From positions 3,392,001 through 3,456,000 of the forward strand of contig OZ244561.1 of assembly GCA_965217585.1 (NCBI GenBank): a stretch of DNA of 64,000 nucleotides. The letters are read 5' to 3'. A program made the position numbers and the translations under genes. The stretch's first letter is position 1; every line of letters begins with the position of its first letter. This document shows positions 320 to 45,955 of this stretch, piece by piece. Below the pieces are notes generated by a model. That model had not been told where the DNA came from and made no database searches. It saw only the letters and a program-made list of their open reading frames with translations. The stretch comes from Candidatus Latescibacterota bacterium. GTDB lineage: Bacteria; Latescibacterota; UBA2968; UBA8231.

Positions 320-1240
320 CTAGCGGCTGATGTGGTTTTTGATGCGGCCCCAGGTGGTGTGCTCGACGGCCGTGGATACGGTCGGGTAGTTGGCCAAATC
401 GACGGTTTCGATGATCACGTAGTCGCACAGATGGTCGCCGTTTGCAGCGGTGTTGAAGCCGCTGCCCGTGCGCCCGAAGATGCTCTGCTGACCATTGACT
501 TCCTTGTCGCGATCCATCCACAGGGTGTGCAGACCTATCACCTGATCGGGTGCGAACACATGCGGGATGCTGGCGTCTGGGCCGAGGATGTCGTAGCGCA
601 CGAACGGGGACGAGATCTTCATCTCGTACGTGTATTCGACGTTGGATGATAGGTGACCGGCGTCCGCCGGCAGGAGGGTGGCCGCGGTGGTGCAATACGG
701 CGGCAGTGCCCCCCAGTCCTCTAGGCCAGGCTCCTGCAAGTCGATGGAAATGGTGCCGCCGAGCTGGGAGTCGAACAGCGGGTGGATGTTGATGCGATAC
801 CCGTTGTACACCTCCTCGGTGCTCGTCCAGGACATCGGCCCGCCCGAGTGGTCCATGTCCATGTTGAACTCAATGGAGTCGTCGTTCCACCAATTGCGCT
901 TTACCTCGGACTCGGCTGCGCCGAGGGTGTCGTCGGTGACGCGGGCGAATAAATAGAGGGAATTGTCCGGCGGTGGACTCCAACCCATGCGATAGCTGGC
1001 CGACCAGTCTTCCGGGATGCCGTTGCCGCCGAGGCCAGTGCCGTCGCCGCTTTGGGCCTCGATATCCTCGGGAGCGATGATAAAGTCTGGATCGATCCAG
1101 GCCCAGTCATCCTCAGAGCCGTCGATGACCATAGAGTTGGGGTCTGGAATCGTAGGGATAAAACCAGTTACGCCGTTGTGGGCCGAGGCCACACCAGAGA
1201 CGGCGAGCACTAGGATCAGGGCGAGATGAGAGCGTTTCAT
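320..1240 (-). CDS. Secreted CBM9/DOMON-like sugar-binding-fold protein with C-terminal TAVEHTTWGRIK tail (paralog 1)
   Basis: Start re-set to MKRSHL, which follows the RBS-like AAAGAAAGGGG. Sec signal ending ASA|H. IDGSEDDW, LYLFARVTDD and WWNDDSIEF motifs resemble CBM9_1-like domains. Confidence 0.75.
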   Translation of the reverse strand: MKRSHLALILVLAVSGVASAHNGVTGFIPTIPDPNSMVIDGSEDDWAWIDPDFIIAPEDIEAQSGDGTGLGGNGIPEDWSASYRMGWSPPPDNSLYLFARVTDDTLGAAESEVKRNWWNDDSIEFNMDMDHSGGPMSWTSTEEVYNGYRINIHPLFDSQLGGTISIDLQEPGLEDWGALPPYCTTAATLLPADAGHLSSNVEYTYEMKISSPFVRYDILGPDASIPHVFAPDQVIGLHTLWMDRDKEVNGQQSIFGRTGSGFNTAANGDHLCDYVIIETVDLANYPTVSTAVEHTTWGRIKNHISR

Positions 1241-1291
1241 CTTGAAGCCCCTTTCTTTAAATGGGATGAGGTGGGAGGGCTGAATTTTGTT

Positions 1292-1320
1292 GATATACAA
1301 GCCTATATTGTACTTGTCAA
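1292..1320 (-). promoter_or_regulatory. Putative sigma70 promoter for paralog 1
   Basis: On the minus strand: perfect TTGACA, 17-nt spacer, then TATATC. Confidence 0.5.
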
Positions 1321-1340
1321 CAAGAAAATAGGCATTCGTC

Positions 1341-2672
1341 TCATGGTTGCGCCTGCAAATGCCGGTAGGCCGCCATGGCCGCTTCGCCTCGGGCCGTTTG
1401 CCCCTGTTTGAGGTAAATCAGCCCCAAGTTGTAGTGGGCATCCGCGAAATTGGGGTCTATTTTGAGGGCCTTTTGCAAGGCTTGGGTCGCGGCGTCCATC
1501 TGGCTTCTCCGCATGTACGTGATGCCTAAGTTGTTGTAAGCGCGGACGTAGCGCGGGTGGTAGCGGAGGATGGTCTCGTACTCTTGGGTGGCCTCGGCCA
1601 GCCGCCCTTGCTTTAGGAGGATGTTGGCCAAGTTGTTGTGCGCACTGAGGTCGGCCGGGTTGATGGATAGTGCTTTGTGATATTCAGCGATCGCGGCTTG
1701 GGGGTGCCCTTGATCGGCGTAGAGTACGCCGAGATTGTAGTGGGCGTGCGCGTCCTCTGGGTAGAGCTGCAGTAGATAGCGGTAGTGCCCGATTTCCTCG
1801 CTCGCGGTTTGGAGCCGCGCGAAAGCCGCGAGCAGTTTTTCTCCTTTGGTCTTCTTCCCTTGCCTGAGATAGAGCGAGCCGAGCCGGTGAAAGGCCTCGG
1901 GTTCAAAGGGGTCGGACGCAATGGCTTGCTGCCAAGCAGCCTCGGCGGCGGCGTGCCGTTCCTGTTGCAGCAACACCTGCCCCAGCGCAATGCGCGCCTT
2001 GGCGTGGTCTGGCTGCTGGCGCAGGGCCGCGCGCAAGCTGGCCTCTGCTTCTTGGCCGCGTCCGATTTTGGCGAAGATCTGCCCTAGCTGGTAGTGAGCT
2101 TGGGCATAGCTGGAATCGAGCTGCGCGGCCTGCTGCCAGTGGACAATGGCCGCTTCGTACTGACCCTGACGCTCGTAGATCATGCCCAAGCTGTACTGCA
2201 TGACCGCACTCTCTGGCTGAAGCGCTAGGGCTTTTTTGAGTGCGTCGCCCGCAGCCGCATAGCGATCGTCGTCGATGAGGACGACCGCGAGTTGGTGGTA
2301 GGTTGCGGCGCGATTGGGGTCTAGCTGGATGGCCTGCCGATACGCGGCTTCGGCCTCGTCGTTGCGGCGCTGGCGCGCAAACGCCCTGCCGAGCGCGAAA
2401 TAGCCCTCGGCCCGCTGCGGCTCGAGTTCGATCACCTGCTGGCAGTGTTGTGTCGCCAATGCGGGCTGGCCGTACTTGAGCAGCAGGCGCGCGAGGAGCA
2501 GGTGAGCCTCCGCGTAAGAGGAATCGGCTGCCAAAGCGCGGCGACACTCCGCAATGGCCTCTACATAGCGCCCTGCTTCGGCGTGGAGATTGCAGTCGTC
2601 GTAATGGACTTCTGCCGCGTTCCCACACGCCCACACCAGCGCCCCCCAAATGAAGAATGGGATCCTTTGCAC
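1341..2672 (-). CDS. TPR-repeat protein, probable lipoprotein (paralog of 20623..21972)
   Basis: About 11-12 tandem TPRs (AHYNLG..Y..G...A). N-terminal hydrophobic stretch ending VWAC. GTG start inferred. Confidence 0.85.
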   Translation of the reverse strand: MQRIPFFIWGALVWACGNAAEVHYDDCNLHAEAGRYVEAIAECRRALAADSSYAEAHLLLARLLLKYGQPALATQHCQQVIELEPQRAEGYFALGRAFARQRRNDEAEAAYRQAIQLDPNRAATYHQLAVVLIDDDRYAAAGDALKKALALQPESAVMQYSLGMIYERQGQYEAAIVHWQQAAQLDSSYAQAHYQLGQIFAKIGRGQEAEASLRAALRQQPDHAKARIALGQVLLQQERHAAAEAAWQQAIASDPFEPEAFHRLGSLYLRQGKKTKGEKLLAAFARLQTASEEIGHYRYLLQLYPEDAHAHYNLGVLYADQGHPQAAIAEYHKALSINPADLSAHNNLANILLKQGRLAEATQEYETILRYHPRYVRAYNNLGITYMRRSQMDAATQALQKALKIDPNFADAHYNLGLIYLKQGQTARGEAAMAAYRHLQAQP

Positions 2673-2779
2673 TTGCGTACCTCGACTAGGCGACCTTATC
2701 TCACGTAACAACGACCGGAACGTATAAGCTATCTTATAAACGGACGTTCCGTAGGGACCATATAGTGTGGTTGCTTTTT

Positions 2780-6330: not shown

Positions 6331-6356
6331 TCGGCGGTTCCTCGCGTTAATTTTTC

Positions 6357-6385
6357 TTGACAAGTCCTTGCACCACACTTAGATA
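6357..6385 (+). promoter_or_regulatory. Putative sigma70 promoter for paralog 2
   Basis: Perfect TTGACA, 17-nt spacer, weak -10 (TAGATA). Confidence 0.4.
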
Positions 6386-6440: not shown

Positions 6441-7367
6441 ATGAAAACATCCGCCTTTGCAGTGCTTTTAGCGCTGGCCCTCGCTGGCGCAGCCGCGGCT
6501 CACACCGGGGCAATTTTTTTCCTCCCCTCGGTCCCCGATCCTTCGGCCATGAACATAGATGGTTCGGAAGACGACTGGGGTTGGTTCGACCGAGACTTTG
6601 CCGTAAGGCCCGACGGTATTGAGGCTTGGGCTGGGCAATTCGTTGGTCAGGGGCCGGGAGCCCAGGGCGACGACTACCAAGCGAGCTATTTCATGGCTTG
6701 GAGCTTGCCCCCAGACAATGCCCTCTACTTCTTCGCTCGGGTGGCCGACGATACTCTCAAGAGTAGCTGGGGAGACAACCTGCGGAACTGGTGGGACGAC
6801 GACACCATGATGATCGGAGTCGATGCCGACCACTCTGGAGGGTCGATCTTGGTGAACGAAAATATCGACGAGGCGCAGAACGGCTATCGCATTGTAGCCA
6901 ACTCGTTGGCCACCAATGAATTCGGCATCGACTACGGCGGCATCCTAGGCGGGGGCGACTTCCCCGAGGGCGACTGGGGAGGGCAGCCGCCTTGGGGCTT
7001 GGGTGCCACGCAAGTCACCCCGCCAGACGCCACTCACGGGTCGACGAATGTCGAGTACACCTATGAGCTGAAGCTGGCTTTGTGGGCCTCGTACGATCCG
7101 GCCGGTCCGGACGGTGATTTGAACCAGCGCTACATGTTCGCGCCCGACCAGGTCACCCACACGACGCCGCGCCTCAACGACGTCGATAACCCGGAAGGCG
7201 GCGGTGGTGCCGGCATGTACGGGTACGTAGGCGGCGCGTTCGACGGACAGGCCGATGGCGACTTGGCCGCCGACTTCCAGACCCTTCTGACGCACGAGCC
7301 TGCTACGGCAGTGGAAAACGTCACTTGGGGGCGGATCAAGAGCCACACGCATAGCCTGCTCGATTGA
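6441..7367 (+). CDS. Secreted CBM9-like protein with C-terminal TAVENVTWGRIK tail (paralog 2)
   Basis: RBS AGAAAGGAG before MKTSAF. Signal peptide AAA|H. Same IDGSEDDW, WSxPPDN.LYFFARV.DD, NWWDDD and NVEYTYE motifs as paralog 1. Confidence 0.8.
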   Translation: MKTSAFAVLLALALAGAAAAHTGAIFFLPSVPDPSAMNIDGSEDDWGWFDRDFAVRPDGIEAWAGQFVGQGPGAQGDDYQASYFMAWSLPPDNALYFFARVADDTLKSSWGDNLRNWWDDDTMMIGVDADHSGGSILVNENIDEAQNGYRIVANSLATNEFGIDYGGILGGGDFPEGDWGGQPPWGLGATQVTPPDATHGSTNVEYTYELKLALWASYDPAGPDGDLNQRYMFAPDQVTHTTPRLNDVDNPEGGGGAGMYGYVGGAFDGQADGDLAADFQTLLTHEPATAVENVTWGRIKSHTHSLLD

Positions 7368-8947: not shown

Positions 8948-10948
8948 TTGAGGAAGCAATACAATCCCAGAGGAGCACACGCCTTGCGAGCACCCAGATG
9001 GCGACCCCTAGCCAGCGCCGCGCTGCTGGCCGTGATCTTTTGGAGCAACGCCGATGCCGAGTTGCGGACATGGGGGATCAACGAGGGCGATCGGAGTTGG
9101 CAATCGGCGTCGCGGGCCACTACGGCCATTGATTTCAGCGTACCTGGCGCGATCCAGATAGCCGGATTCGAGCCGACGGACAACATCATCCAAGCCCTCA
9201 CGTGGGTTTCGGCCTTCCCCATAGAAGGGTACATCCCCGAGCGCCCTCAAGCCCATATCTGGAATAACTACCCGCTCAAGGAATCGGATATTCCCCTCGT
9301 GGATGGCGACCCTAACACCTCCACCGGGGACCGCTTCAAACGCTTTGGCTCCAATCAAGCGGGTCGACGTTTTTCCCTCGATTTAGGGAGCCGCTTCCCA
9401 GTCAACCGCATCATTTTTTTTCCGCGTCTCACCGGCGTTGACGACGAGGGCATTCCCTATTGGGAGGATTACGTCCGGGGCTACGAGCTATACGTCAACA
9501 ACGGCCTCGAATTCGGCGAAGACAACCAGCCCATCTACCAGCTTATGAAGCGGGTGGAATTCTCCCGCGACAGCATCGCCGTAGTCGAATTCCCCAACCA
9601 ATTCATCCGCTATGTCGGGCTGCGGGTGCTGTCGAAAAACCCCTTTGAGATCGCCGAGATCGAAATCTACGGCTCGGGTTTCGTGCCCAAGGGGGAGTAC
9701 CTGTCCAAGGTCATCGACCTCGGCGAACCCACCAACTTCGGCATCCTGAACTGGAGCGCGGTCTCGCTGCGGGTTGATGCAGCCACTGGTGACTTAGTTG
9801 AGACGCCCCAAGCAGATGTTTCCCTCAGTTTTCAGATGCGCTCGGGACTGGACGATTCGCCAGAGGTCTATTACGAGATTACCAACAAGTTCCTCAACGA
9901 GCTAACCGTAGTTACCGAGGACGCCTATAAGTCCCTGACCGCTGATGTCAAAGGCGGCATTGAGGCCGATCAAGTAAACTGGAGCACTTGGTCGGAGCCG
10001 TTCACCGTTTCGGGTCAGGCAGTCATGCTGCCTAGTCCGCGACGATTCGTCCAGTTCCGCGTCATCATGGAAAGCGGCCGGATCTCAGATGGCCTGCGCG
10101 TTGGCGACCTGACCTTGGAAATTGCCTCCCCCCCCTTGGCGCGGAGGTTGTTCGGCGAAATTTCCCTGCTGGCCGACCCCGCGCCCCAAGACGGTTTTGC
10201 CATGGTGCCCGTGGGTGTGCCCTCCCGATTTGCGTACGACCTGTTGGCCGATGTCCGCGACGCGGATGTGGGGATTGACGCGCTGCGGATTACCACGCCA
10301 ACGCGCCCGACCTTTGTCGAGCTTTTGATGGGTGCCGACGAGAGCAACCTGACTCCGGTCGTCCCCAGTGCCGTCGAAGAGGGGTCTGACGGCCTGACCT
10401 TGTATTTCCCGGAAAATCGGATCGCCGCCCCGACCTCGCTGCGGGTGATTTTCGACGCCGAGTTGCTCGTACAGTCCACGTTTTTCAATGCCCAAGCCCT
10501 AGACACCGAGAGCGAGGAATTGCCCCAGCCGGTCTTGCCTCCGCCCCGTCCTTTACGCCCCATTGACGATCCCAACTCGCAGGTTACGACCAATAAGCTG
10601 CAAGTCCTCACGTCGCCCGATTCGCGGAACGATGTGCTGCGCATCGCGGCATTTGGCACCCGGGTGATAACCCCCAACGGCGATGGAGTAAACGATCAAA
10701 TCGCCATTCAATACAGCCTGCTACAGCTCCTCGAAGACGCCCCCAACACGCTGGAGATTTTCGACTTAGCGGGCCGACGCGTGTACGCCTTCCGCGAGGA
10801 TCGGGGCCGAGGCCCACATACCGCCACTTGGGATGGCCGCGACGCGGATGGCCGCTTGGTTCCCGTGGGGCTGTATCTGCTCAGGGTCGCAGTCGAAGGA
10901 GCCGTGGAATCCTTCGCCGAGACCCGCACCATAGGGGTTGTGTACTAA
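8948..10948 (+). CDS. Secreted discoidin(F5/8)-like protein with C-terminal FlgD-Ig/CHU_C-type domain (paralog A)
   Basis: Signal peptide; LVDGDPNT..LDLG..FPVNRI...EIAEIEIYG; C-terminal ITPNGDGVND..IFDLAGRRV..WDGRD..G.LVPVGLY. Start position uncertain. Confidence 0.8.
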   Translation: MRKQYNPRGAHALRAPRWRPLASAALLAVIFWSNADAELRTWGINEGDRSWQSASRATTAIDFSVPGAIQIAGFEPTDNIIQALTWVSAFPIEGYIPERPQAHIWNNYPLKESDIPLVDGDPNTSTGDRFKRFGSNQAGRRFSLDLGSRFPVNRIIFFPRLTGVDDEGIPYWEDYVRGYELYVNNGLEFGEDNQPIYQLMKRVEFSRDSIAVVEFPNQFIRYVGLRVLSKNPFEIAEIEIYGSGFVPKGEYLSKVIDLGEPTNFGILNWSAVSLRVDAATGDLVETPQADVSLSFQMRSGLDDSPEVYYEITNKFLNELTVVTEDAYKSLTADVKGGIEADQVNWSTWSEPFTVSGQAVMLPSPRRFVQFRVIMESGRISDGLRVGDLTLEIASPPLARRLFGEISLLADPAPQDGFAMVPVGVPSRFAYDLLADVRDADVGIDALRITTPTRPTFVELLMGADESNLTPVVPSAVEEGSDGLTLYFPENRIAAPTSLRVIFDAELLVQSTFFNAQALDTESEELPQPVLPPPRPLRPIDDPNSQVTTNKLQVLTSPDSRNDVLRIAAFGTRVITPNGDGVNDQIAIQYSLLQLLEDAPNTLEIFDLAGRRVYAFREDRGRGPHTATWDGRDADGRLVPVGLYLLRVAVEGAVESFAETRTIGVVY

Positions 10949-13050
10949 TGTTGCGGCGAATCGCACTGTTGGCCGCCCTCTGGGCTTGGCAGACGCAGCC
11001 AGCGTGGGCGCAGGAGCTGTGGAAGCTAGGGGGGCAAGGCGGCCGTTCCTGGGCCGAGACCGCCGACCTCAACGTGATGGGCGACGCAACTAGCGTGCCC
11101 GGCGCGCTGCAGCCGTGGGAGCTGCGGCCCGACGTCAGCTTCCTCCCGCTAGTGTCTCAGCGCTTTACTTGGGATCGCTGGCAGTTTCCGCTCAATCCGT
11201 TCTGGACGGAGGGTATTCCTCGGCTCTGGCGGGGGCCTGGCAACCAGCAGTTCGCCCAGCAGTTCCAGCCCATCGCCGCGTACGTTGACGGCAATTATCA
11301 GACCTTCAATTGGAACACCAACTTCGGCCCCGGCGGCAACAAGACCAATAGCGAATTTTACACGATTGACCCAGGTGCTCCCGTGCCGCTAGAGCGCTTT
11401 GAGATCCACCTGCCGCCCGAATTCGAGCCCGCAACCGGCGTGGCCAACCCAGACTGCTGCGATCAGTTTGGCAAGCCCTGGACCCACTACATCCCCCATC
11501 AAGGCGAGTTGACGGGCAGCCTCATTGAGACCACGGATATGCTGCTCGAAGGCCGCGGCGAAAACCGCTACGGCGAGTCCTATAAGCCCCTGCCGATCCC
11601 TTTAGGCAGCGTGGAGCAGCACTTAGTCGCCCCCATCATCATCGACTTTCCGCTGCAATACCTGCGCTTCGTGCGTTGGCGCACCTTCCCGGACAACCCG
11701 GATGCTCCCGGGGTGAAGATCAACTTTGCCCTCGCGTATGGCGAGTTCGAGCTGTACGGCCGCGGCTTCGCTGGCCAGACTCGCTACGTAAGCCACATCC
11801 AAGACTTGGGGCAGCCGGCGACGCTAGGGAGGGTGTTCATGGCGGTCAGCAAGTGGCGGCGACAAGGCGCTGGGTGGAGCGAAACCGCAGACGGCGAGCG
11901 CCGCTGGCAAGTAGGCGAATTGGTCGAAGCACCGGACGCCGAGGTGGACGTCGTCTTCCGCCTCAAGAACGGCACGGACGCCGATCCCCTGATGTATTTC
12001 ACTTGGAATGACCAAGGCGAATTTCACGAGGTCGAGCGGACTGCGTGGGACGGACTCAAGTCGCGGGCCAACGACAGCGACCCGAACTTCGTCGGCTGGC
12101 GGGGGCCTGTCACCGAGGATCGAGAAGAGTGGGCACCTTGGTCTGGCCCGGTGAATCAATCCGGCACGCGCCTCGACCTGCCCAGCCGTCGGTTCTTCCG
12201 GCTAGAGCTGCAAATGACGACTGCCAGCCCGGTAGAAATGGCGCGGGTGGATTCGCTGTCCATTGAATTATTTCCCTTGCTAGTTCCCACCTTGGTGGGC
12301 GAGGTCGGCCTGCCCGGCGACTCCCTCGCAATACTGGCCCAAGTGCCCATAGGCGAGCCGACCGAGTTCGCATACGCCATCCGCGCCGGCTTTGGCGGCG
12401 AGACAGTAGCTGGCTTCGACGCCTTGCACATCGCCACGCCGGCCGAGCCAGAGTTCCTATATCTAAGGGATGCTGCCGACGAGGCCGTCCAGCCCGATTC
12501 CTCGTGGAGCGATGCCGAGGGCTTGACCTTGTATCTGCCAGAGCCGATCCGCGCCGACGAGACCCTGCGAATCGGCTTCAAGACCGCGGTCTATACGGTC
12601 TCGGCCCAGTTGCGCGGCGAGGTCTTCAACCGCGCCAATAGCGTCTTGCGCCAGCAGGTTGAAGAAGGCGATGCAGTCGCCGCGATCGGCACCCAACAGC
12701 TACAAGTGGTTGCAGCGGGGGGCGCCGTCGAGCAGGTCGTCGGCGGGCTGGAAATAGTGCCCCGCACGTTCACGCCCAACGGAGACGGCCACAACGACCT
12801 GCTGGAAATTAAGTACACCTTGTTCGGGGTTTTGGACGCGGCCGTGGAGATCACGTTTTTCACGCTCGCGGGCGAACCCGTAGATCGCATTATCGCCGAG
12901 CACCAAGGCGGTGGTGTCCACACCGCATTGTGGGCTGGTCGCAACGCGGCCGGCCGCCCATTTAGACCAGGGTTGTACTTGTGCCAAGTGCAGGCCCAGA
13001 CCGGCCGGGGGCGCTTTGAACGCACCCAGTCGGTGGCTTTGGTCTATTAA
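10948..13050 (+). CDS. Secreted protein with FlgD-Ig/CHU_C-type CTD (paralog B)
   Basis: ATG overlaps the upstream TAA. Signal peptide AWA|Q. C-terminal FTPNGDGHND..WAGRN..G...PGLY; ends in ALVY. Confidence 0.8.
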   Translation: MLRRIALLAALWAWQTQPAWAQELWKLGGQGGRSWAETADLNVMGDATSVPGALQPWELRPDVSFLPLVSQRFTWDRWQFPLNPFWTEGIPRLWRGPGNQQFAQQFQPIAAYVDGNYQTFNWNTNFGPGGNKTNSEFYTIDPGAPVPLERFEIHLPPEFEPATGVANPDCCDQFGKPWTHYIPHQGELTGSLIETTDMLLEGRGENRYGESYKPLPIPLGSVEQHLVAPIIIDFPLQYLRFVRWRTFPDNPDAPGVKINFALAYGEFELYGRGFAGQTRYVSHIQDLGQPATLGRVFMAVSKWRRQGAGWSETADGERRWQVGELVEAPDAEVDVVFRLKNGTDADPLMYFTWNDQGEFHEVERTAWDGLKSRANDSDPNFVGWRGPVTEDREEWAPWSGPVNQSGTRLDLPSRRFFRLELQMTTASPVEMARVDSLSIELFPLLVPTLVGEVGLPGDSLAILAQVPIGEPTEFAYAIRAGFGGETVAGFDALHIATPAEPEFLYLRDAADEAVQPDSSWSDAEGLTLYLPEPIRADETLRIGFKTAVYTVSAQLRGEVFNRANSVLRQQVEEGDAVAAIGTQQLQVVAAGGAVEQVVGGLEIVPRTFTPNGDGHNDLLEIKYTLFGVLDAAVEITFFTLAGEPVDRIIAEHQGGGVHTALWAGRNAAGRPFRPGLYLCQVQAQTGRGRFERTQSVALVY

Positions 13051-13153
13051 ATTCACCGCACCGCTTCACCCTGCCTGTCCTGCCGACGTCACCGCGCCTT
13101 TAGGCGTGACAAGGCAGGGTAAGCAGGCAGGACAAGCGAGACAACGAGCAAGC

Positions 13154-15478
13154 ATGAACCGGATCGCCGTGTTTCCTCTGCTGATGGCTCTGCTGGCGGG
13201 TAGTGCCGCTTGGGGCCAGCACCAAGCCTATCGCCTAGATCGTCAGGCTCAATGGGAGGAATGGACCTTCCCCCCAGGTCTCCTCCAATTCGACCCGGAC
13301 GGTGCCTTCACGCTTGTCGCGTTCCCAGATACGGTCAATGCCGCACTGGATTCTCCCGAGTACACGCATTCAGGAGCGGGCAACAAAGAAATCCAAGGCG
13401 GCGTGTGGCGGGCAGGCTCTACGGCCCGCGCGGCCGGGATCGCCGCTGGCAACATCATTGACGGCGACTACCAAACCCTGTGGAAACCCGACCCGGACGC
13501 CCCGCTTGAGGACTGGTGGATTGAGGTCGATCTAGGGCGCGTGGTGCCGCTAACTAAGATCCGGCTCGTTTTCCCCGACGAGGAGGGCGCGCGGCCCCTG
13601 CGCGACTTCCGGGTCTTTGGGACGCGGGGCTACCGCGAAGCCATTAGCCAGGATCTGTTTGCGTACAGCGTGTTGGGCGGGACCACCCGCTACAACGACC
13701 AGACGGTCGTGGAATACGAACTCAGCCCTTGGCGGGAATTGACCACGCGCATCTTGTACACGGGCTTGGAAAGCGCCACGGATGTAGCGCCCTCGCCTTT
13801 CCAGCCCGTGCAGTACATCCGCATCCGGGCCGATTCCAAGAGCGAGGACGCCGCCCTCGCCGAGGTAGAAGCCCACACCTTCGGCGAGAACGTGGCCTTA
13901 CAGGCCATCCGGCGGGGTGGCCAAGTGGAGGAACAGTCCGGCCGCGGTGTGGTGTTGATAGACGGCGATCAAAACACGAGTTGGGCACAATCCGTCACTG
14001 GGGGCCGCGATGTAATCTGGATGCTGGACCTCGGCGCGCGCTATTGGGTCAAGAACATCCTCATGCTGGGGGCGGAAAAGCGCGGCTATGCGGTCGGCGA
14101 CATGGTTGAGGATCACCTGCTGCTAGGCTCGGCCGAAGAGAGCAAGCTGGAGGTCGGCGACATAGATTTTGCCGTGATCCACGAGTTTCTCACGCCCCTC
14201 GGCGGGGGCCGCTACGATCTCCAGTACTTCCTGCCCACGCCGCGCGCCTTCCGCTATTTGGCCGGGGTTTACAAAAACCGCAACGGGGATATGTCTGAGA
14301 TCATGGTCGTTCCCACCGGACACGTGGCTGGGGTGGCCTTAGAATCCGGCTTCATTGACCTCGGGGAATTCACTGGAGACAGGCGCTCCAAGCAGATCTT
14401 GGGGATCCACTGGGATGCCGATCAACCCGAAGGCACTCGCGTATTGGTGCGGAGCCGCACCGGCCACCGGCTAACCGATAAAATTGCTTACTACAAAAAG
14501 GACGGGACCCTGCTGCCCGACAAAGCAGCCTACGAGAGCACGAACAAATTCCTGCGCGGCGAGACCGACACCAGCATTGTCGCCGGCCCCGACTGGAGTG
14601 CTTGGAGCACGGAGTACCTCGAACCGGGCATTTTCCTCTCGTCGAGTCCGCGGCGACTGTTGCAACTCCAACTCCTGCTCACTTCGGATCGCCCCGAAGC
14701 GGCCCCGACCGTGAGGCACCTCGAAGTGCGATTCACCGACGCCTTAATAAGGGGCATTGAAGGCCGCATCGCGCCCCAATCAGCTACCCCGGGTGTGCCC
14801 ACAACCTTTACCTACGAGCTGTGGGGCGACTTCACAGAGGGCGGCGGCTTTGACCAGCTCCTCTTTGCAACCCCGTCCCGAATCGATCCCGACAGCCTCC
14901 AAGTGTGGGTGGGTGGCGTCGCACTGCCCGCAGTGGAGTGGGAGCAGGCCGCGGCCGACTCCCTGTTGATTCAGCTACCGCAGGTCGTGGAGCAAGCCGC
15001 GGATACCGTGCGGGTGCAGTTGCGCGTGCAGATAGAGCAAAACCCCACGCTGTTCCGAACCTTTGTGGCCCGCACCGAGGTGCCCGATCTGTGGCAGGAG
15101 GTGCTGCCCACTAACAGCGTGCCACGCGCGACCCAAGTTTTCTTCCCAGACGTCCCCCAGCCCGACCGCTTGCTTGCCAATCTCTCGGTTGCGCCTCGCA
15201 TTGCCACTCCCAACGGAGACGGGATTGGCGACCAAGTCCAGATACGCTTTTTGGTCCTGAATGTGGAGGTCGAGCCAGAGGTGTGGATCTATTCGTTGGA
15301 TGGACGGCGCGTCCGCCGCCTCGACGGGGGCCGCGCAGCCGCGGGCTACTCGTACACTTGGTCGGGCCGCGACGAGGCGAACCGCCTGAGTCCACCCGGC
15401 CTCTACGTGTGCCACATTCGCCTTAAAACTCAACTCGGGGAACAACAAATCAGCCGGACTATTGGCCTCGCGTACTAA
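13154..15478 (+). CDS. Secreted protein with two discoidin-like units and FlgD-Ig/CHU_C-type CTD (paralog C)
   Basis: MNRIAV signal peptide; IIDGDYQTLW..WWIEVDLG and LIDGDQNTSW..LDLG; ATPNGDGIGD..WSGRDE..PGLY; ends in GLAY. Confidence 0.8.
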   Translation: MNRIAVFPLLMALLAGSAAWGQHQAYRLDRQAQWEEWTFPPGLLQFDPDGAFTLVAFPDTVNAALDSPEYTHSGAGNKEIQGGVWRAGSTARAAGIAAGNIIDGDYQTLWKPDPDAPLEDWWIEVDLGRVVPLTKIRLVFPDEEGARPLRDFRVFGTRGYREAISQDLFAYSVLGGTTRYNDQTVVEYELSPWRELTTRILYTGLESATDVAPSPFQPVQYIRIRADSKSEDAALAEVEAHTFGENVALQAIRRGGQVEEQSGRGVVLIDGDQNTSWAQSVTGGRDVIWMLDLGARYWVKNILMLGAEKRGYAVGDMVEDHLLLGSAEESKLEVGDIDFAVIHEFLTPLGGGRYDLQYFLPTPRAFRYLAGVYKNRNGDMSEIMVVPTGHVAGVALESGFIDLGEFTGDRRSKQILGIHWDADQPEGTRVLVRSRTGHRLTDKIAYYKKDGTLLPDKAAYESTNKFLRGETDTSIVAGPDWSAWSTEYLEPGIFLSSSPRRLLQLQLLLTSDRPEAAPTVRHLEVRFTDALIRGIEGRIAPQSATPGVPTTFTYELWGDFTEGGGFDQLLFATPSRIDPDSLQVWVGGVALPAVEWEQAAADSLLIQLPQVVEQAADTVRVQLRVQIEQNPTLFRTFVARTEVPDLWQEVLPTNSVPRATQVFFPDVPQPDRLLANLSVAPRIATPNGDGIGDQVQIRFLVLNVEVEPEVWIYSLDGRRVRRLDGGRAAAGYSYTWSGRDEANRLSPPGLYVCHIRLKTQLGEQQISRTIGLAY

Positions 15479-15500: not shown

Positions 15501-18173
15501 ATGTACAACAAGAGATGGGATGCACTCATCTTGTTGAGCGCGATTTTAGGCGTTTCCTCTGTGGTAGCCCAGCCGCCCAAAGCCTTCAGGGAAATATCCG
15601 AACCCGGGGTGTATGGCACTCGCATCCAACCGGGCGCGCTGGCCCCCACGCTGAGGAAGTGGTACCTACCTCAGCAGCTTTACTACGAGTACCGCTGGCG
15701 CGGCTGGGAGTACAGCAACTACGCCCGCGAACACTACCAGCGCTACGTGAGCATTCTGCTCGAAGGCACGCGCCAATACGATCCCTTGGGCAACTACATC
15801 GCCCGCGGGTGGCGGATATACGATTGGACCGAGAATAACCCCCAGTCCTTTGGTAGCGAGATATTCAAAAGCCCGCGCTTTGGCCGCTTTTTCAGCAGCT
15901 TGGTCATCTCCTCGGCCAGCAAGGGCCAGTTTCACTCGACGCTCACGGTGGGCGACGCCATCCGCACCACCCTGACGCCCCTGACGTTTTCCAAGCCCTC
16001 TTTTAACGGTTTGCAATGGGACTTCCTGTCCGACAAGTACGCGGCGACCTTGATCGCGTCGCGGGTTAGCTCGCCTGGCTTTGGCGCGATAACCCAGAGT
16101 TCCACCGGCAATACAGCCGTGAGTTCCACGCGGCTGTTGGGGGGGAGAGGACTGGCGCAGGTGGGGGACTTCGGCGAGATCGGCTTTACTTGGGTGAATG
16201 CCCATAACGCGGACAGCGAGTTCAACCTGGGCCAGAATTCGCTCAAAGGCGTGCTGACGCGGCCGCAGAACTTGGGCAACGTGGAAGAGGTCATCATCCG
16301 CATCTCCGACGATTCGCCCGAGTCTCCGGCCGAAGGGGCGGTTATCTTCTTGGAGCGAATCCTGATTGACGGCCAAGTGCAAGAGGGCATCGTGCCGCTG
16401 GTGGAAGGAGGCATACGGGAAGACGGGGTGCTCAAGGCCAAGGGCACAGACGCCATCCTGCTGACCTACGACATCCGCAATGACTTTCAGCCCACCGAAG
16501 CGACCCCCAGCTTCAAGGACGTCGAGAAGATGGAATTTGAGCTGATCATGGCCAACGACTACCGGGTGGAAATCAGCTCCAACAAACAGCTCGACCGGCT
16601 CGGCAACGAGGTCTTTCTACCGGTCTTTCAGGCTGAGCACAACATCACGGACGGGTCGAATCAGCGCTTTCTCCGCTTCGAGTACGGCCTACCCACAGCT
16701 ACGGAACTGATCGGCCTCGACTTCAATATCAAAAACTTCAAGGGCTTTGACCTGAGAACCGAGTACGTGGTCAATCGGCGCTTTCAGCGATTCCCCAACC
16801 AGAACTTCCAGCGCATAATAGATGGCAGATTCCGCAAGCTACCTCCCACGCGGGAAACTGCCCAAGCCTTTTACCTGACTTCGTCCTATTCGCGGTATCC
16901 GTTCTTTGCCTACGGCGAGTCGTTCTATTTGGATCCCGACTACAGCACTACGGCCTTTATGTCCGACGCCGGCGGCAACATCGACTACGGCAATGCCACC
17001 CGGCATTTGTTTGAGTTCGTCGATGACAACGACGACCAAGACATAAACCCGGATTGGATGCGCCAATCTCAAGGCGTCACCGTAACGCTGACCGAGGAAC
17101 TGGGCACTGGCTCTGGAGGGGATCGCCAGGTCTTTCCCGGTCTCGACGAAAACAACGATTTCATTTCGGACTTCAACCAGAACCAAAACAACAAACCCGA
17201 CTACGCCGAACCCTTCCTGCGCTACGCGGTTGATACGCCCGAGTTTCTCTTCGGCATGGACATGAACAACAACACCATCATCGACCGCTACGAAGACGAC
17301 TTGGTGGCCGACTTGCCGTATGAGCGCGACCGCACTGGGTACAACGCATACGCCGGCTTGGCCCTCAGCGAGGACATCAACTTGGTCTTGGGCCAACTGC
17401 GCCAGCGCCAGATCAGCAGCGGCAACCGCAACCACACCAGCTACGGGCTGTTGACCGCTGAGTGGGATTTCCCCGGCCTGCAAATCGCCGTTTTTGAACA
17501 GGCCCGCCGCACCCAAGACACCATCCGCGAAGATCGGCTTATATGGAAGGACCCCGAGGGCCAGCTACCTTTCAACGACCCGCTCGATGCCCAAGACACG
17601 TTCATCAACAGCTTCTACACACACGCCAAGTACACGCCGCTGCCCAACCTCCACGTGACGTCCAAGCTGAAGTTTGAAAAGTTTTTCCAGCAAGGCAAAG
17701 AGGCCGAGCGCAAGCGCGACCGCTCCTTTTTCGGCTTGATCAACAAGGCCGATTACGAACTCAAGCCCTTTGCCACCCTGACCCTGTGGCCCAAGTTCAA
17801 GAGCATCTACCGGCGTCAGCTTCCCTCCATCCGAGCCGTGCCCAAGGAACTGAGCATTTCCCGCGACCGCGAGGAGATCCTCTTTTTGGTCACCCGCTAC
17901 AACTTTCTACCGCAGACTTGGGTCGATATTGGGCTGGAGTTCAGCAATTTCGACAACCTGAAGGAGCAGCAGAACTTGCGCTCGGGCGAGGAGGACGACT
18001 TCAACAGCTTCGTCTTTGCCTTTGTATTTTCCAATACCTCGGCGTACATAGGCTACAAACTCACCCTGAACGCCGGGTTTCAACGCGAACAAAAAAACTT
18101 CGACAAAGGCGACCTCAACATAACGGAGACCGTGGCCTTTGTCCGCCTATTTGCCGCTACCGGAGACCTCTAA
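15501..18173 (+). CDS. Large secreted, probably outer-membrane beta-rich protein with Ca-binding-like loops
   Basis: RBS AGGAGG and signal peptide. Many amphipathic beta-like segments. DDNDDQD, DENNDFISD, NQNQNNKPD and DMNNNTIID loops. Confidence 0.65.
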   Translation: MYNKRWDALILLSAILGVSSVVAQPPKAFREISEPGVYGTRIQPGALAPTLRKWYLPQQLYYEYRWRGWEYSNYAREHYQRYVSILLEGTRQYDPLGNYIARGWRIYDWTENNPQSFGSEIFKSPRFGRFFSSLVISSASKGQFHSTLTVGDAIRTTLTPLTFSKPSFNGLQWDFLSDKYAATLIASRVSSPGFGAITQSSTGNTAVSSTRLLGGRGLAQVGDFGEIGFTWVNAHNADSEFNLGQNSLKGVLTRPQNLGNVEEVIIRISDDSPESPAEGAVIFLERILIDGQVQEGIVPLVEGGIREDGVLKAKGTDAILLTYDIRNDFQPTEATPSFKDVEKMEFELIMANDYRVEISSNKQLDRLGNEVFLPVFQAEHNITDGSNQRFLRFEYGLPTATELIGLDFNIKNFKGFDLRTEYVVNRRFQRFPNQNFQRIIDGRFRKLPPTRETAQAFYLTSSYSRYPFFAYGESFYLDPDYSTTAFMSDAGGNIDYGNATRHLFEFVDDNDDQDINPDWMRQSQGVTVTLTEELGTGSGGDRQVFPGLDENNDFISDFNQNQNNKPDYAEPFLRYAVDTPEFLFGMDMNNNTIIDRYEDDLVADLPYERDRTGYNAYAGLALSEDINLVLGQLRQRQISSGNRNHTSYGLLTAEWDFPGLQIAVFEQARRTQDTIREDRLIWKDPEGQLPFNDPLDAQDTFINSFYTHAKYTPLPNLHVTSKLKFEKFFQQGKEAERKRDRSFFGLINKADYELKPFATLTLWPKFKSIYRRQLPSIRAVPKELSISRDREEILFLVTRYNFLPQTWVDIGLEFSNFDNLKEQQNLRSGEEDDFNSFVFAFVFSNTSAYIGYKLTLNAGFQREQKNFDKGDLNITETVAFVRLFAATGDL

Positions 18174-19840
18174 TGCGCAGAAAGATCTCGACCCTCGCTG
18201 CGCTCGCCTTGATTCAGTGCGGCGGTCCTAGCGATGTTGCCGACAATGTGGCCGCCCGAATCGGCGACAAAGAAATTACCCGCGAGGACCTAACCCTTTT
18301 CGCTGCGGAGACCCCGGCCCTGCTGAGATCGGAAGCTACCGGCATGGACGCGGCCAAAGATTATCTCCAGACCCTGATCGACATGGAATTGATGCTCGTG
18401 GCCGCCCGCGCCAAAGGCTTGGATAAGGAGGCGCAATTCACCGCGCAATGGGAGCAGGAGCAGCAAAACAGGATCGTCAAGGATTATATAGAGCGACACG
18501 TACTGCCCGAGAGCCAGCCCTCAGAGCAAGAAGTCCGGGAGCAATTCGCCAAGAGCAAGTGGAGCCGCCTGCTCAAGCTAGCGCACATTCGGGTAGAGAC
18601 TCAACAACAAGCTCAACAAGTCGTCCAAGAACTGGAGCAGGGACGCCCCTTCGCAGCAGTGGCTGCGGAACGCTCGGCGAATCGAACCACGGCGGCCAAC
18701 GGCGGCCTTCTGAGCGAGAACTTTATAGGTCGAGAAAACTTGCGGGACGTGCAGCTCCCGTTGTCCATCGCCCACGTCCTGTACGAGGTGCCGGAGGGCG
18801 AGGTCAGCCAGCCCTTTAAGGTGCGAGGCGCGTACGAGATTTTCAAGGTGCTGGACGAAGCCCCCGCGCCCGACTACTACCTCCAAGTATTCGCCCAGTG
18901 GCTCTTCCGGCAGAATTACGAGCGCACCCAGCAGGAGCGGGTGGCCGAACTCAAGCCCAAGTACAAGGTTGAGGTGGATACGGCCGCCGTCGCGTTTCTC
19001 ATCGCCGAGGGCTCCAAGGGCAGTACCGCCTTGTGGGACATTGCACCTGCAGACCGAGAGCGGATTCTGGGGCGCTATGACCGCGGGCACTTCACCATCG
19101 AGGATTTGATGAATGCGTACTGGAAGGCCCGCTTCCAGTCCCGGCTCGAATTCAGCCGCGAGGGCATCGCCGATTTCATCGATACGCACATCCTGTCGGT
19201 CCAACTGTTTTACCTCGAAGCCCTTGAGGAGGGCTTGGACGAGGACCCGGCGGTCGTGGCTTGGCTGCACAACAAGAGAGAGGCCCTGCTACTCGAAGCG
19301 CTCAAAGAGCGCGAAGTTCAAGCCCTCATCGATACGACCGACGCTTCGGCGCGCCGCTATTACGAGAACAACCTGCACAAGTTCATGGAGCCACGCGCGA
19401 CCGTGATTTTGGAGATTTTGGTGCCCACCCGGGCCGTGGCCGATTCGCTGCTGAAGGAAATCGAGGGCGGAGCGGATATGGAGACGCTCGCCGTGCGCCA
19501 CACCACGCGGCAGTTTGCCAAACAGCAACAAGGGCGGCTCCACCTGCATGCGTACGAACGGACCCTATTCGGCCCACTCCACGACGAGGCCATGGAAAAG
19601 GCCCCCATTGGCGAGTTGCAAGGACCCTTAGCGCTAGAGGAAGGCTTTTCCATCTTCAAGGTCGAGGAGCGCATCCCCGACCGGCCCGAGCCTTTTCCGC
19701 AGACGGTGCGGCGGGCCAAGTACTGGCTGAGAAAGTCCGAGGAGAACAAGTACTTCGAGGAATTGATCGTCAGGCTACGGGAGCAATACGCGGCACAAGT
19801 GGAGGTGTTTGAGGAGCATATCGCGGATCTGGAATTGTGA
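18173..19840 (+). CDS. Parvulin-type peptidyl-prolyl isomerase/chaperone (two PpiC domains, SurA/PrsA-like), probable lipoprotein
   Basis: ATG overlaps the upstream TAA. VAARIGDKEIT, AHIRV..F.AVA.ERS..GG, and EILV..GADMETLA..GF.IFKV motifs. Confidence 0.85.
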   Translation: MRRKISTLAALALIQCGGPSDVADNVAARIGDKEITREDLTLFAAETPALLRSEATGMDAAKDYLQTLIDMELMLVAARAKGLDKEAQFTAQWEQEQQNRIVKDYIERHVLPESQPSEQEVREQFAKSKWSRLLKLAHIRVETQQQAQQVVQELEQGRPFAAVAAERSANRTTAANGGLLSENFIGRENLRDVQLPLSIAHVLYEVPEGEVSQPFKVRGAYEIFKVLDEAPAPDYYLQVFAQWLFRQNYERTQQERVAELKPKYKVEVDTAAVAFLIAEGSKGSTALWDIAPADRERILGRYDRGHFTIEDLMNAYWKARFQSRLEFSREGIADFIDTHILSVQLFYLEALEEGLDEDPAVVAWLHNKREALLLEALKEREVQALIDTTDASARRYYENNLHKFMEPRATVILEILVPTRAVADSLLKEIEGGADMETLAVRHTTRQFAKQQQGRLHLHAYERTLFGPLHDEAMEKAPIGELQGPLALEEGFSIFKVEERIPDRPEPFPQTVRRAKYWLRKSEENKYFEELIVRLREQYAAQVEVFEEHIADLEL

Positions 19841-19853
19841 TAGGAGCAGCGTT

Positions 19854-31098: not shown

Positions 31099-32037
31099 TT
31101 ATTCGCTGAAGTGGTTTTTGATGCGCGCCCAGGTGACGTGCTCGACAGCGGTCCCTACGTCGGTAAAGGAGTCTGGGTAGTTCTCTATGTCTGCGGTCAG
31201 CAGGCATAGGGCGTCGGCGGCTTGGTCCGCATCGACCATGCCGTTGACTTCGGGAACACCAGCTTGTCCCCAGAAATCCGACTCGCCGTGCGGGCCTTCG
31301 TCGCCTTCCTCAAACTGGACGACAATATGCAATACTTGGTCGGGGGCAAAGACGTGTTGGATGCTCGCTGCTTCCCCGGAGACATCGTATATGTCCCACA
31401 GTTTTGCCTTCAGCTCAAAGGTGTACTCCACATTGGGCGTGAGGTGCCCGGCATCCGCCGGCGCAACCGTGGTGCGATAGCGCATGTTGTGGGGCTGGAT
31501 GCTAAAGGGCTGGAAGTCGTCGTTCTCGCCCGGGCCAGCTAGACCACCGGCGTGGGGGCCGACTTCGTTGGTATGGAGCGGACTGAGATGATAGCGATAT
31601 CCGTTGGAGATTTCGTTGATGTCCTCATTGCCCGTAACAGGCCCGCCGCCGTGATCGGCGTCGAACAGGAGGTTGAGGTTGTCGTCGTCCCACCAGTTGG
31701 CCTTTTCGTTCCCCCACCCGGCGCGGAGGGTATCGTCCTTTACGCGGGCGAAGAAATAGAAGGCGTTGTCCGGGGGCGGACTCCAAGCCATAAACCACGC
31801 CATACTGAAATCGTCTGGTGCCGGATTGACCCCTTGGCCTTTCTTCTGGCCCAGAATGGAGATGATGTCGGTATTGGCGAAATCGCGGTCATACCAATCC
31901 CAATCGTCTTCCATGCCGTCTATGTTGATGGCGAGCGGGTCGGGAACGGTGGGCAAGAAGTTGGTCAGGCCGTTGTGGCCAAAGGCAGTGCCGGTAAAGG
32001 CAACTGCGAGGATGAGTAACAGCGTTGCGTGTTTCAT
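31099..32037 (-). CDS. Secreted CBM9-like protein with C-terminal TAVEHVTWARIK tail (paralog 3)
   Basis: RBS AAAGGAG, signal peptide AFG|H, and the same conserved motifs as paralogs 1 and 2. Confidence 0.8.
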   Translation of the reverse strand: MKHATLLLILAVAFTGTAFGHNGLTNFLPTVPDPLAINIDGMEDDWDWYDRDFANTDIISILGQKKGQGVNPAPDDFSMAWFMAWSPPPDNAFYFFARVKDDTLRAGWGNEKANWWDDDNLNLLFDADHGGGPVTGNEDINEISNGYRYHLSPLHTNEVGPHAGGLAGPGENDDFQPFSIQPHNMRYRTTVAPADAGHLTPNVEYTFELKAKLWDIYDVSGEAASIQHVFAPDQVLHIVVQFEEGDEGPHGESDFWGQAGVPEVNGMVDADQAADALCLLTADIENYPDSFTDVGTAVEHVTWARIKNHFSE

Positions 32038-42719: not shown

Positions 42720-42744
42720 TTGAAATCCAGCATGAGGGACGTTC

Positions 42745-43155: not shown

Positions 43156-43261
43156 TCACACCCACAAGGGATCGAGGAAGCTCGGCATCGATGATAAAAC
43201 GCACAGCGATCAGGACAGGATAGCCTCTTTGCTGACAAAAAAGATACGAAAGATGCAATAG

Positions 43262-43621: not shown

Positions 43622-43809
43622 GTAGCTGGGGTACGGCGCGATCCAAATGGTCGCGGTCATGCCGGACAATCTCGATTGGCAGAGATCCACCGCTGCGGTG
43701 GGGTTGAGTAGTCGCCGGTTGGGTGTGGAGCTACGTCTAGGCGACTCCCTGTAGATGAATGCTTGTTTCTCGCTCAGTAGCCCATCGGACCGCTGTCGGC
43801 TAGCGGAGG

Positions 43810-44290: not shown

Positions 44291-44322
44291 TTCTCCCGCT
44301 TGGCCCCTTTAACTCCCGACGC

Positions 44323-44972: not shown

Positions 44973-45065
44973 GGGAATGTCCTCATTAATAAAAGTAGTG
45001 CTTATCTGTGGGTGTTTGGTGACACGACTTGAAGATCTGATGACCATCTTGTTAAGAATTAGACA

Positions 45066-45096
45066 GTCCTCGGTTTGAGTCCGGGAGGCGACTCCA
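45066..45096 (+). other. Degenerate tRNA-like 3' remnant (T-arm, acceptor strand, CCA)
   Basis: CTCGG-TTTGAGT-CCGGG T-arm followed by AGGCGAC-T-CCA. No matching 5' acceptor strand upstream. Confidence 0.45.
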
Positions 45097-45250
45097 ATAA
45101 AAACAAGGAGTTATGACAAACATACCATAGCGGCGAAAAAGTCGTGTCAGCAATATGTCAGCAATAAGTAGAAGGAATCCAATGCTACGTATGCTGTTCA
45201 AGCTGTTGTCGCTATTCGGTCGTGAGCCTCTTTGAAATCTGAGAGAACCG

Positions 45251-45289
45251 AAAAAACCCCGTGCCGGGAGATTTGGCACGGGGGTTTTT
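45251..45289. terminator. Bidirectional intrinsic terminator
   Basis: AAAAAACCCCGTGCC-gggagattt-GGCACGGGGGTTTTT. Confidence 0.9.
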
Positions 45290-45315
45290 AATAGCCCTCG
45301 TCAAAAAAATTATTT

Positions 45316-45391
45316 GTCGGGTAGGCGGAGCCTGTCACCAGTTCCCGCCCCCCTCAGAACCGTGCGTGCGACTTTCACCGCACACTGGGTC
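45316..45391 (-). mobile_element. Group II intron 3' remnant (domains V and VI)
   Basis: Minus strand reads GACCCAGTGTGCGGTGAAAGTCGCACGCACGGTTC-TGAGG-GGGGCGGGAACTGGTGACAGGCTCCGCCTACCCGAC: DV with GAAA tetraloop, DVI with bulged A, and an ..AC 3' end. No RT ORF. Confidence 0.85.
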
Positions 45392-45427
45392 CCGTGTGGC
45401 CAGGTTTCGCCTCAGCCGCAAGAAAAA

Positions 45428-45955
45428 TCAAAAATCGGAATTATTCTGTTTTAAGGTTTTGATTTGTCCCCACGAGGTCTCGTCCACAACCGTAGCCTGA
45501 TTGGTTTCTGAACAAGGAGCCGACGAACACAAACAACTTTCCTGCGTCTTGTCGTTGATATGGTAGCTGGTGCATAACCGGTATGGCTCGTCCGGGTTAA
45601 AATCCTCGCACAGTCTGGAGCGGCCGCAGCTAAAATTCTGATCCGTTGCATTGTCTGGCGTGACCAACGAACAGGGAGTAGAAGAATATTGCCTGTCCGC
45701 TATATACAGATTGCACTCCCAATCTAAGGCAAACGTGATCCAAGCATATTTCGGATATGGTGTATTTCTATCTATATATTCCCAAGAACAAAAACGATGA
45801 TCGGGATTTAAGCCACAATCGAAGCATTGATCCCAGAACATCTCGCCACAATAGACCCTGTCGTGTTCGGCTTGGCCCAAGTTGATCGAAAGCAGGAGCA
45901 CAAGCACCGTGAGGATCGTTGCAGCTTGCAACGTGCGTAGTATTGATTTGTTCAT
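45428..45955 (-). CDS. Secreted Cys-rich (12 Cys) protein with C-terminal TVVDETSWGQIK tail
   Basis: RBS AAGGAGG, signal peptide GQA|E, lower GC. Confidence 0.75.
   Translation of the reverse strand: MNKSILRTLQAATILTVLVLLLSINLGQAEHDRVYCGEMFWDQCFDCGLNPDHRFCSWEYIDRNTPYPKYAWITFALDWECNLYIADRQYSSTPCSLVTPDNATDQNFSCGRSRLCEDFNPDEPYRLCTSYHINDKTQESCLCSSAPCSETNQATVVDETSWGQIKTLKQNNSDF

Follow-up and report, generated by a model that had tools for sequence, protein, structure and literature searches.

Introduction

The C-terminal sorting signals handled by sortases (LPXTG), exosortases (PEP-CTERM) and rhombosortases (GlyGly-CTERM) need a transmembrane helix and a basic end and, as short terminal motifs, are carried by unrelated passengers, dozens per genome. 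The type A C-terminal domain (CTD; TIGR04183, PF18962) of the T9SS (type IX secretion system), with its PorV shuttle and PorU sortase, is an immunoglobulin-like sandwich of 70-80 amino acids (aa) with motifs B, D and E, found on unrelated cargo with Sec leaders and read by PorM/PorN or PorV (bioRxiv 10.1101/483123). The type B CTD (TIGR04131/PF13585) carries the motif TPNGDG, and the short CTDs of Prevotella intermedia show that T9SS signals can shrink, to PorV-binding three-stranded sheets of 40-55 aa that keep motifs B, D and E and a PT/GI-type cleavage site (PMC11969387). In type II secretion, an envelope lipoprotein, the pilotin, binds a short C-terminal helix of the secretin S-domain, marked by a hydrophobic signature, and directs this client to the outer membrane (PMC6532946). 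Here we describe a C-terminal tail of 16-17 residues, modelled as a strand and a helix, on four secreted proteins encoded in a 64,000-nucleotide stretch of DNA (the window) from Candidatus Latescibacterota bacterium (contig OZ244561.1, positions 3,392,001 to 3,456,000). The reading that we prefer, with a probability of roughly 0.55, is that the tail is a modular docking tag on unrelated passengers, Sec-exported as judged from their leaders; an NTF2-like lipoprotein would read it and hand the passengers to the outer-membrane parts of the T9SS, the tail thus standing in for a type A CTD.

The tail lacks the defining structural features of type A, type B and Prevotella short CTDs and of the sortase-type signals. 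None of 86 aligned tails matched TIGR04183/PF18962 or TIGR04131/PF13585 (the type-B-like proteins of the source genome form a separate set of 105), and the sheet, the motifs B, D and E and the PorV binding of the Prevotella short CTDs are missing. Unlike the sortase-type signals, the tail has no transmembrane helix, as a sequence-only reading of the window had already claimed: 0/76 tailed proteins contained a hydrophobic 17-mer within the last 40 aa. With type A CTDs it shares the Sec leader, the unrelated cargo, the junction at which it starts, a T-[AS]-[VI] linker in the source genome and interchangeability on paralogues, and its hosts encode SprA, PorV and PorU. The nearest mechanistic likeness, on the modelled binding described below, is to the pilotin; however, pilotin pairs have a different motif and one secretin client, whereas the tail has dozens of unrelated clients (among them CBM9-like, propeller, Cache, FGE-sulfatase, Temptin_C, beta-helix, CHRD and X25 proteins) and an NTF2-like candidate receptor. 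BamG/BamH (PMC12611786) offer an analogy only. In its mechanism, the tail most resembles a mix of pilotin-like helix binding (PMC6532946) and the T9SS principle of one shuttle for each signal (PMC12618676).

A new C-terminal sorting signal is a rare find, and in many Latescibacterota, Eisenbacteria and Krumholzibacteria, which are common but uncultured degraders of polymers and associates of sponges, 1-2% of the genes carry this tail. The tail was without a model in Pfam and NCBIfam when the four window proteins and the 86 aligned tails were searched (two or three single-member matches, E 0.005-0.13, were treated as chance), and the tail profile had no match below E 0.6 among PDB sequences. 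Literature searches, with subscription journals mostly outside their coverage, returned no description of the tail by motif spelling, Latescibacter sorting motif or T9SS plus Latescibacter; combinations with Poribacteria or Eisenbacteria/Krumholzibacteria returned unrelated papers only, and a match for NTF2 plus T9SS was a strain name.

A terminal tail on unrelated passengers

The four tails were found where the sequence-only reading had placed them. Three belong to CBM9-like secreted passengers identified by translation and Pfam: a 306-aa protein with a Sec leader (320..1240, minus strand), a 308-aa protein (6441..7367, plus strand) and a 312-aa protein (31099..32037, minus strand), which end in TAVEHTTWGRIKNHISR (320..373 with the stop codon, minus strand), TAVENVTWGRIKSHTHSLLD (7305..7367 with the stop, plus strand) and TAVEHVTWARIKNHFSE (31099..31152 with the stop, minus strand), respectively. 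Pfam CBM9_1 was above the cut-off in one of them (E 1e-5) and below it in two (E 0.008 and 0.03). The fourth passenger is a secreted 175-aa protein with 12 cysteines (45428..45955, minus strand), which had no Pfam match, was assigned to no known family and ends in TVVDETSWGQIKTLKQNNSDF (45428..45493 with the stop, minus strand). On direct reading, all four start with a basic-hydrophobic-AxA leader. In the CBM9-like proteins, those of the window included, a His directly follows the predicted leader cleavage site (34/44 paralogues, loose rule); this N-terminal His of the mature protein is possibly a metal site.

The tail consensus is x-[TS/P]-x-V-E-x-x-[ST]-W-G-x-I-K-x-x-[FY], 16 residues in length. 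Its occurrence was counted in 38,471 six-frame open reading frames (ORFs) of the whole source genome (G000; one contig, C1, of 7.32 Mb; other G-, L- and f-labels denote further genomes, loci and Latescibacterota families). The core [TS]W[GA]x[ILV]K lay at most 20 aa from the stop in 73 matches and internally in 2; a strict form gave 44 terminal and no internal matches, a looser one 85 and 61. A position weight matrix retrieved 72 matches above 12 bits, every one terminal, in 13 BLAST clusters. By a broader rule 77 tails were collected and, after removal of a shadow frame at C1:4477171, 76 proteins remained, which formed 18 BLAST clusters at a stricter cut-off and at least 13 unrelated groups. 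The claim that unrelated passengers share the tail was thus borne out, with more such groups in other genomes; the tail is neither confined to one homologous family nor scattered through protein interiors. Among the 76 tails, T was counted in 68, V in 66 and G in 70, while W and K, at 76 each, were imposed by the selection rule; A, E, [ST], I and F complete the consensus. The Trp stands 7-18 residues before the C-terminal end, and the distance from junction to stop is 14-25 aa.

Leaders were called by a heuristic of our own or by direct reading rather than by SignalP. The heuristic found a Sec leader in 67/76 tailed proteins, 65/85 type A CTD proteins and 1142/4688 background proteins; among the nine negative tailed proteins several have visible leaders, three are apparently truncated and one is an anti-sigma factor. 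Three leaderless tailed ORFs (C1:461551-464986 and C1:4918933-4919601) appear to be N-terminally truncated or interrupted. The tail had been described as amphipathic, which holds in a mild sense only: the mean hydrophobic moment of 65 tails was 0.39, above the background mean of 0.31 and below its 90th percentile of 0.55.

Pfam searches with 20 representatives identified PD40 and WD40 propellers, Cache, FGE-sulfatase, Temptin_C and zf-HC2 domains as well as many unassigned domains, and CBM9-like paralogues account for 44-46 of the tailed proteins. Within the source genome, many of the tailed families include tail-less proteins as well, which indicates that the tail is an add-on and not part of a fold. 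The tailed proteins of this genome measure 151-420 aa, against a median of 710 aa for type A CTD proteins. A strict size limit was considered and dropped, because tailed open frames of 670-1200 aa occur in other genomes; small cargo is a bias, not a limit. We are highly confident that the tail is a genuine protein-docking or sorting tag.

Distribution across genomes

GTDB genomes were searched with a DNA pattern that encodes [APST]VExx[ST]WGxIK, which was found at 127 loci or more. All 126 matches examined in other genomes (79 distinct and 47/47) sit 3-15 aa before a stop, although the pattern itself contains no stop codon. Labels among the matches listed were Latescibacterota, Eisenbacteria, Krumholzibacteriia, Handelsmanbacteria, Effluviviaceae, Gemmatimonadota and one Desulfobacterales. 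A Pfam family was assigned to 8/38 of the outside passengers, adding TED/Big_1, CHRD, beta-helix, X25/CBM20, pectate lyase and NHL to the cargo. Invariant W and K, a near-invariant G and a fixed V-to-W spacing were kept across three phyla.

A 21-position hidden Markov model (HMM) of the tail was then applied to sampled genomes of Latescibacterota, of the Eisenbacteria phylum and of the phylum of the Desulfobacterales-labelled record, the other Fibrobacteres-Chlorobi-Bacteroidetes phyla and Poribacteria lying outside the sample. It gave no false matches in 98 negative genomes (18 and 80). Matches were obtained in 59/121 Latescibacterota genomes, distributed by family as f1 44/44, f2 0/29, f3 0/17, f4 0/2, f8 0/4 and f10 1/11, and in 65/71 genomes of the Eisenbacteria phylum; in the phylum to which the Desulfobacterales-labelled record belongs, 0/80 further genomes were positive. 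That record (G128; L055, L310 and L311) encodes two proteins with the tail and a single 890-aa barrel, for which cassette transfer and bin contamination are suggested alternatives. A phage system on viral contigs was considered and rejected as mostly chance: there were 11 loci, and among the 10 frames listed three matches were terminal in long or cut frames, three lay in 22-aa frames and four were internal.

Exchange of the tail with type A CTDs

The source genome encodes SprA, PorU above the cut-off, seven PorV-family barrels above the cut-off and over 120 type A CTDs, and PorU was also above the cut-off in 4/4 other tail-rich genomes. SprA was found in 58/59 tail-positive genomes and in 119/121 Latescibacterota genomes, including all tail-less families; the T9SS may therefore be needed for the tail but is not sufficient.

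A connection to the T9SS was provided by paralogues of the 12-Cys protein. All three of its non-tail paralogues in the source genome (E 1e-25, 2e-11 and 7e-7) end in a type A CTD: their alignment with the window protein extends to the last Cys pair, after which they continue via T-A-V into a complete type A CTD, and at this same junction the window protein reads T-V-V-D-E-T-S-W-G-Q-I-K. The same swap was seen in P0022, a public homologue of the 12-Cys protein. A type A CTD was likewise present in 5/8 non-tail homologues of a WD40 passenger and in 3 of 100 full-length CBM9-like representatives, of which 80 are tailed; the Temptin_C family (116/120 tailed) showed no CTD swap.

The TAV common to the tail and to the linker before type A CTDs had been overlooked by the sequence-only reading. 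In the source genome, T[AS][VI] occurs at the junction of 59/77 tails; among type A proteins, 53/87 have it 17-23 aa ahead of the CTD start, against 4/105 type-B-like proteins and 2.4% of random windows. PorU is reported to cleave T/E/D/N|G/A/S (PMC10202324), with a site consensus PT/GI (PMC11969387), and the linker before type A CTDs agrees with the published site. The CTD linkers of other genomes, of which 16 were read, were varied. Tail genes other than the CBM9-like ones also lie closer to type A CTD genes, 10/30 of them within 5 kb (seven in one tandem cluster) compared with 75/1500 random genes. At C1:6791624-6853951 FG-GAP-like proteins with type A CTDs form a long tandem array, interleaved with tailed PD40/WD40 proteins and 12-Cys CTD paralogues.

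LIPO1 and LIPO2 as candidate receptors

Inspection of PorV-family loci revealed a candidate receptor about 430 kb beyond the window, which the sequence-only reading had likewise not noticed. The locus (C1:3882474-3888435) comprises a CTD-bearing propeller, the PorV-family barrels PorVa (C1:3884066-3885088) and PorVb, an M50 protease, the NTF2-like lipoproteins LIPO1 and LIPO2 (the latter at C1:3887761-3888435) and a deacetylase, in an order kept across Latescibacterota classes among the loci listed. LIPO1 and LIPO2 are homologous (99.2%) with their tails in register, ending in SWGELRALFSQ and SWAALKQKIAP, respectively, in the source genome, and the lipobox Cys is invariant in both alignments. 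LIPO1 ends in [ST]WGxLRAxF in 9/10 alignment rows, F replacing W in one, and LIPO2 stops after the last strand in 13/15 rows. Neither lipoprotein has a Pfam or NCBIfam family, and LIPO2 had no meaningful match among PDB sequences. Their modelled fold is NTF2-like (Z 13.9, root-mean-square deviation 2.0, 123 residues aligned to 3rob), with only NTF2-like entries among the rows listed.

The LIPO1 family was searched in a panel of 44 hand-chosen genomes, some of whose 14 other Latescibacterota had supplied the alignment. It was found in 0/18 tail-less f2/f3/f4 genomes, 14/14 other Latescibacterota and 11/12 pattern-scan genomes. LIPO2, used as a single query, was found in 68/121 Latescibacterota genomes and 0/48 of f2-f4. 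Both lipoproteins are thus missing in 18/18 tail-less relatives that keep SprA, and in 4/6 f2-f4 loci the M50 gene directly adjoins the deacetylase, at the site that LIPO1 and LIPO2 occupy in other genomes. The propeller gene was found in none of five genomes, in a search with no positive control. In the tail-less genomes G033, G065 and G092 of families f2-f4, 12-15 PorV-family barrels were counted at E<=1e-35; a different cargo-shuttle system may have expanded there.

A pair of one capped and one open lipoprotein also occurs in Eisenbacteria, and in Eisenbacteria/Krumholzibacteria arrays of 2-5 NTF2 lipoprotein genes, many of them tailed, lie behind a barrel of 630-700 aa. This probable outer-membrane barrel stands between rsmA and LIPO1 at L232:5663-7672, L233:7039-8967, L231:9338-11440 and L237:7943-9931. 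It has no Pfam family and no match in the source genome; homology to the 890-aa protein of the window was rejected (hhalign 0.4%). In these lineages it might correspond to PorVa in function.

The source genome also encodes a zf-HC2 anti-sigma factor that has a single transmembrane helix and ends in the tail (C1:1943198-1944019, L014), behind a gene labelled by eye as ECF-sigma-like. This suggests a reader of the tail that would face the periplasm, and a pathway that may be sensed.

Co-fold of LIPO2 with the tail

In AlphaFold2 (AF2) models the terminal helix of LIPO1 had a predicted local distance difference test score (pLDDT) of about 91, whereas LIPO2's own tail, modelled as a single chain, reached 73-76 after a linker below 50; an ordered tail behind a disordered linker is consistent with a tethered placeholder. 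LIPO2 residues 40-200, with the own tail cut off (57-row alignment), were co-folded with the last 32 aa of the 320..1240 protein, which include TAVEHTTWGRIKNHISR (86-row alignment). The score was 0.85, compared with 0.03 for the best of three controls; the mark applied is reached by 116/157 solved complexes and 2/215 mismatched pairs, counts that are only roughly valid for the alignments used. The runs shared at least 92% of contacts, with a partner pLDDT of at least 63. The interface was formed by motif residues T16-N28 of the peptide: in the model, E19-T22 run along strand 169-173, W23 packs on V171, I159, M175 and V157, and I26 and K27 on F169, I109, I97 and F76. The LIPO2 pocket positions were more conserved than the rest (1.88 versus 1.14, p 0.03, 20 diverse rows), also in 11 naturally tail-less rows, and no comparable complex was found in PDB searches. 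Proteins of the LIPO1/LIPO2 family are likely to bind the tail.

Proposed mechanism and alternative explanations

The tag, its modularity, its exchange with CTDs and its co-loss with LIPO1 and LIPO2 can be read from the sequences, and together with the modelled binding they allow the following proposal. After Sec export of the tailed protein, suggested by the leaders, the V-E-x-x-[ST] segment would pair with the lipoprotein as an extra beta-strand, and the W-G-x-I-K helix would put its Trp and Ile in the LIPO2 pocket. This helix probably originated as a capping or pairing element of LIPO1/LIPO2 and was later added to numerous small proteins destined for export. The lipoprotein adaptor would collect tagged proteins at the outer membrane; for translocation they would most likely be handed to SprA, a PorV-family barrel and PorU, the tail filling the role of the type A CTD for small single-domain cargo. 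In Latescibacterota the tail may be clipped at T|AV, as a CTD is. A still broader view, which we hold only tentatively, is that the tail stands for a class of sorting signals new to bacteria, for which NTF2-like lipoproteins serve as dedicated receptors and which leads up to about 100 proteins in each genome into a T9SS outer-membrane translocon apparently without the PorKLMN motor, in three uncultured phyla, with a tailed anti-sigma factor and an M50 protease as monitors. The candidate receptor can be tested with two recombinant molecules, and the tail HMM pinpoints the envelope-targeted proteome of the host lineages. The system bears on how SprA/PorV/PorU choose cargo outside Bacteroidota, where the PorM/PorN step was not detected, and a tag of 16 aa that pairs with a small soluble receptor could serve as a display or assembly tool.

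Several observations weigh against this proposal. The co-fold indicates compatibility with the lipoprotein's own helix site and not occupancy, because that site was vacated by design, and among 120 close homologues of the source genome's LIPO2, 105 carry a tethered degenerate tail (by regular expression); the conservation of the pocket may simply be that of the NTF2 core. Families f2, f3 and f4 are probably one clade, so that the co-loss probably amounts to about one event. Their loss of secreted cargo may have been a general one (G007 of f2 has 6 type A CTDs, four other genomes 76-150), and they also lack PorVa, the propeller and the window cassette. Conversely, the lipoproteins are kept without passengers in f8 (4/4), in f10 (3/3 with 0-1 tails) and in 5/6 tail-negative Eisenbacteria, from which it follows that they have another job; a second co-loss in Eisenbacteria was rejected on the last count. 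The Desulfobacterales-labelled genome has its two tails yet no LIPO and no PorV-family match. The inner-membrane anti-sigma factor, tailed in 4/4 genomes of the genus where it was found (3/3 same-genus homologues), cannot be secreted whole. Outside the source genome a Pro follows the putative cut in 30/47 tails, into which PorU cleavage fits poorly, and Thr precedes it in only 16. Finally, GldM and GldN models had no match in five genomes, in a search with no positive control and not extended to GldK and GldL.

The same co-fold and co-loss data would fit a plain tether, in which the tail docks small proteins non-covalently on NTF2-like lipoproteins, a scaffold in the periplasm or at the surface, as dockerins do on cohesins, with no hand-off to the T9SS. 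Such docking would also accommodate the tail on an inner-membrane anti-sigma factor and on lipoproteins, the tandem lipoprotein arrays of Eisenbacteria/Krumholzibacteria and the frequent Pro after the putative cut site. We nevertheless regard it as unlikely: one or two receptor genes would serve about 75 cargo genes in the source genome, and neither the exchange with type A CTDs at one junction nor the T-A-V linker common to both would be expected. Slightly less probable still is a minimal T9SS signal read directly by PorVa and PorU, with LIPO1 and LIPO2 as cargo whose pocket holds their own helix. A cognate shuttle barrel for each signal type is established (PMC12618676), and PorVa forms a clade of its own (99/98), with orthologue-level matches in 12/14 other Latescibacterota and 0/18 tail-less genomes, in all 18 of which PorVb is kept. 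However, no orthologue-level PorVa was found in 11/12 pattern-scan genomes, ten of them tail-rich, its loss is explained by that of the neighbouring CTD-bearing propeller, and naturally tail-less LIPO2 proteins retain the pocket residues.

That the tail needs no receptor, being a membrane-binding amphipathic helix or the remnant of a decayed CTD, seems improbable. Trp, Ile and Phe do lie on one face with basic flanks, and the tail starts at the CTD junction; yet its hydrophobic moment is unremarkable, it has no similarity to CTD models, and the conservation of W, K, G and their spacing over three phyla points to a protein site. Least credible of all is a proposal of the sequence-only reading, in which the operon at 8.9-20.6 kb of the window, with its 890-aa protein, peptidyl-prolyl isomerase (PPIase) and lipoprotein, was the dedicated machine. 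It could draw on the 38/46 CBM9-like tail genes that lie within 12 kb of an 890-aa-type gene, and on the absence of the 890-aa family where tails are missing within Latescibacterota (0/18 and 0/4). It is largely refuted by 10 genomes with 16-114 tails each, in none of which the 890-aa protein was found with a single-sequence query. Only 6/30 other tail genes lie that close (random genes 197/1500), the three large genes of the operon are themselves T9SS type-B-like cargo, and the 80 paralogues of the 890-aa protein argue for cassette-specific roles. Of the earlier idea of an export or anchoring tag read by a dedicated machine, the terminal tag on Sec-exported passengers therefore stands, and the adjacent operon as its reader does not.

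The adjacent operon and other features of the window

The adjacent operon is cargo context, not the reader. On the plus strand, three large secreted proteins with type-B-like CTDs (TPNGDGxND) are encoded at 8948..15478, CHU_C being above the cut-off in one and below it in two; they are followed at 15501..20621 by the 890-aa protein, which is without known family, a PpiC-type PPIase and a small lipoprotein-like protein. Besides the 80 paralogues of the 890-aa protein, the source genome contains 41 of the PPIase and 25 of the small lipoprotein. Together with DUF6785, the type-B-like CTD proteins, the 890-aa protein, the PPIase and the lipoprotein-like protein form a cassette amplified at about 40-80 sites of the source genome. 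The DUF6785 membrane protein, at 4384-6378 of the window, has 78 paralogues. The window cassette is one copy of a type that often carries a CBM9-like tail gene. At 47474-63395 the window contains a stretch of lower GC content, and the genes at 48808-49770, 59200-62037 and 62115-63395 are, judging from their translations, what we take to be restriction-modification and ATPase defence genes.

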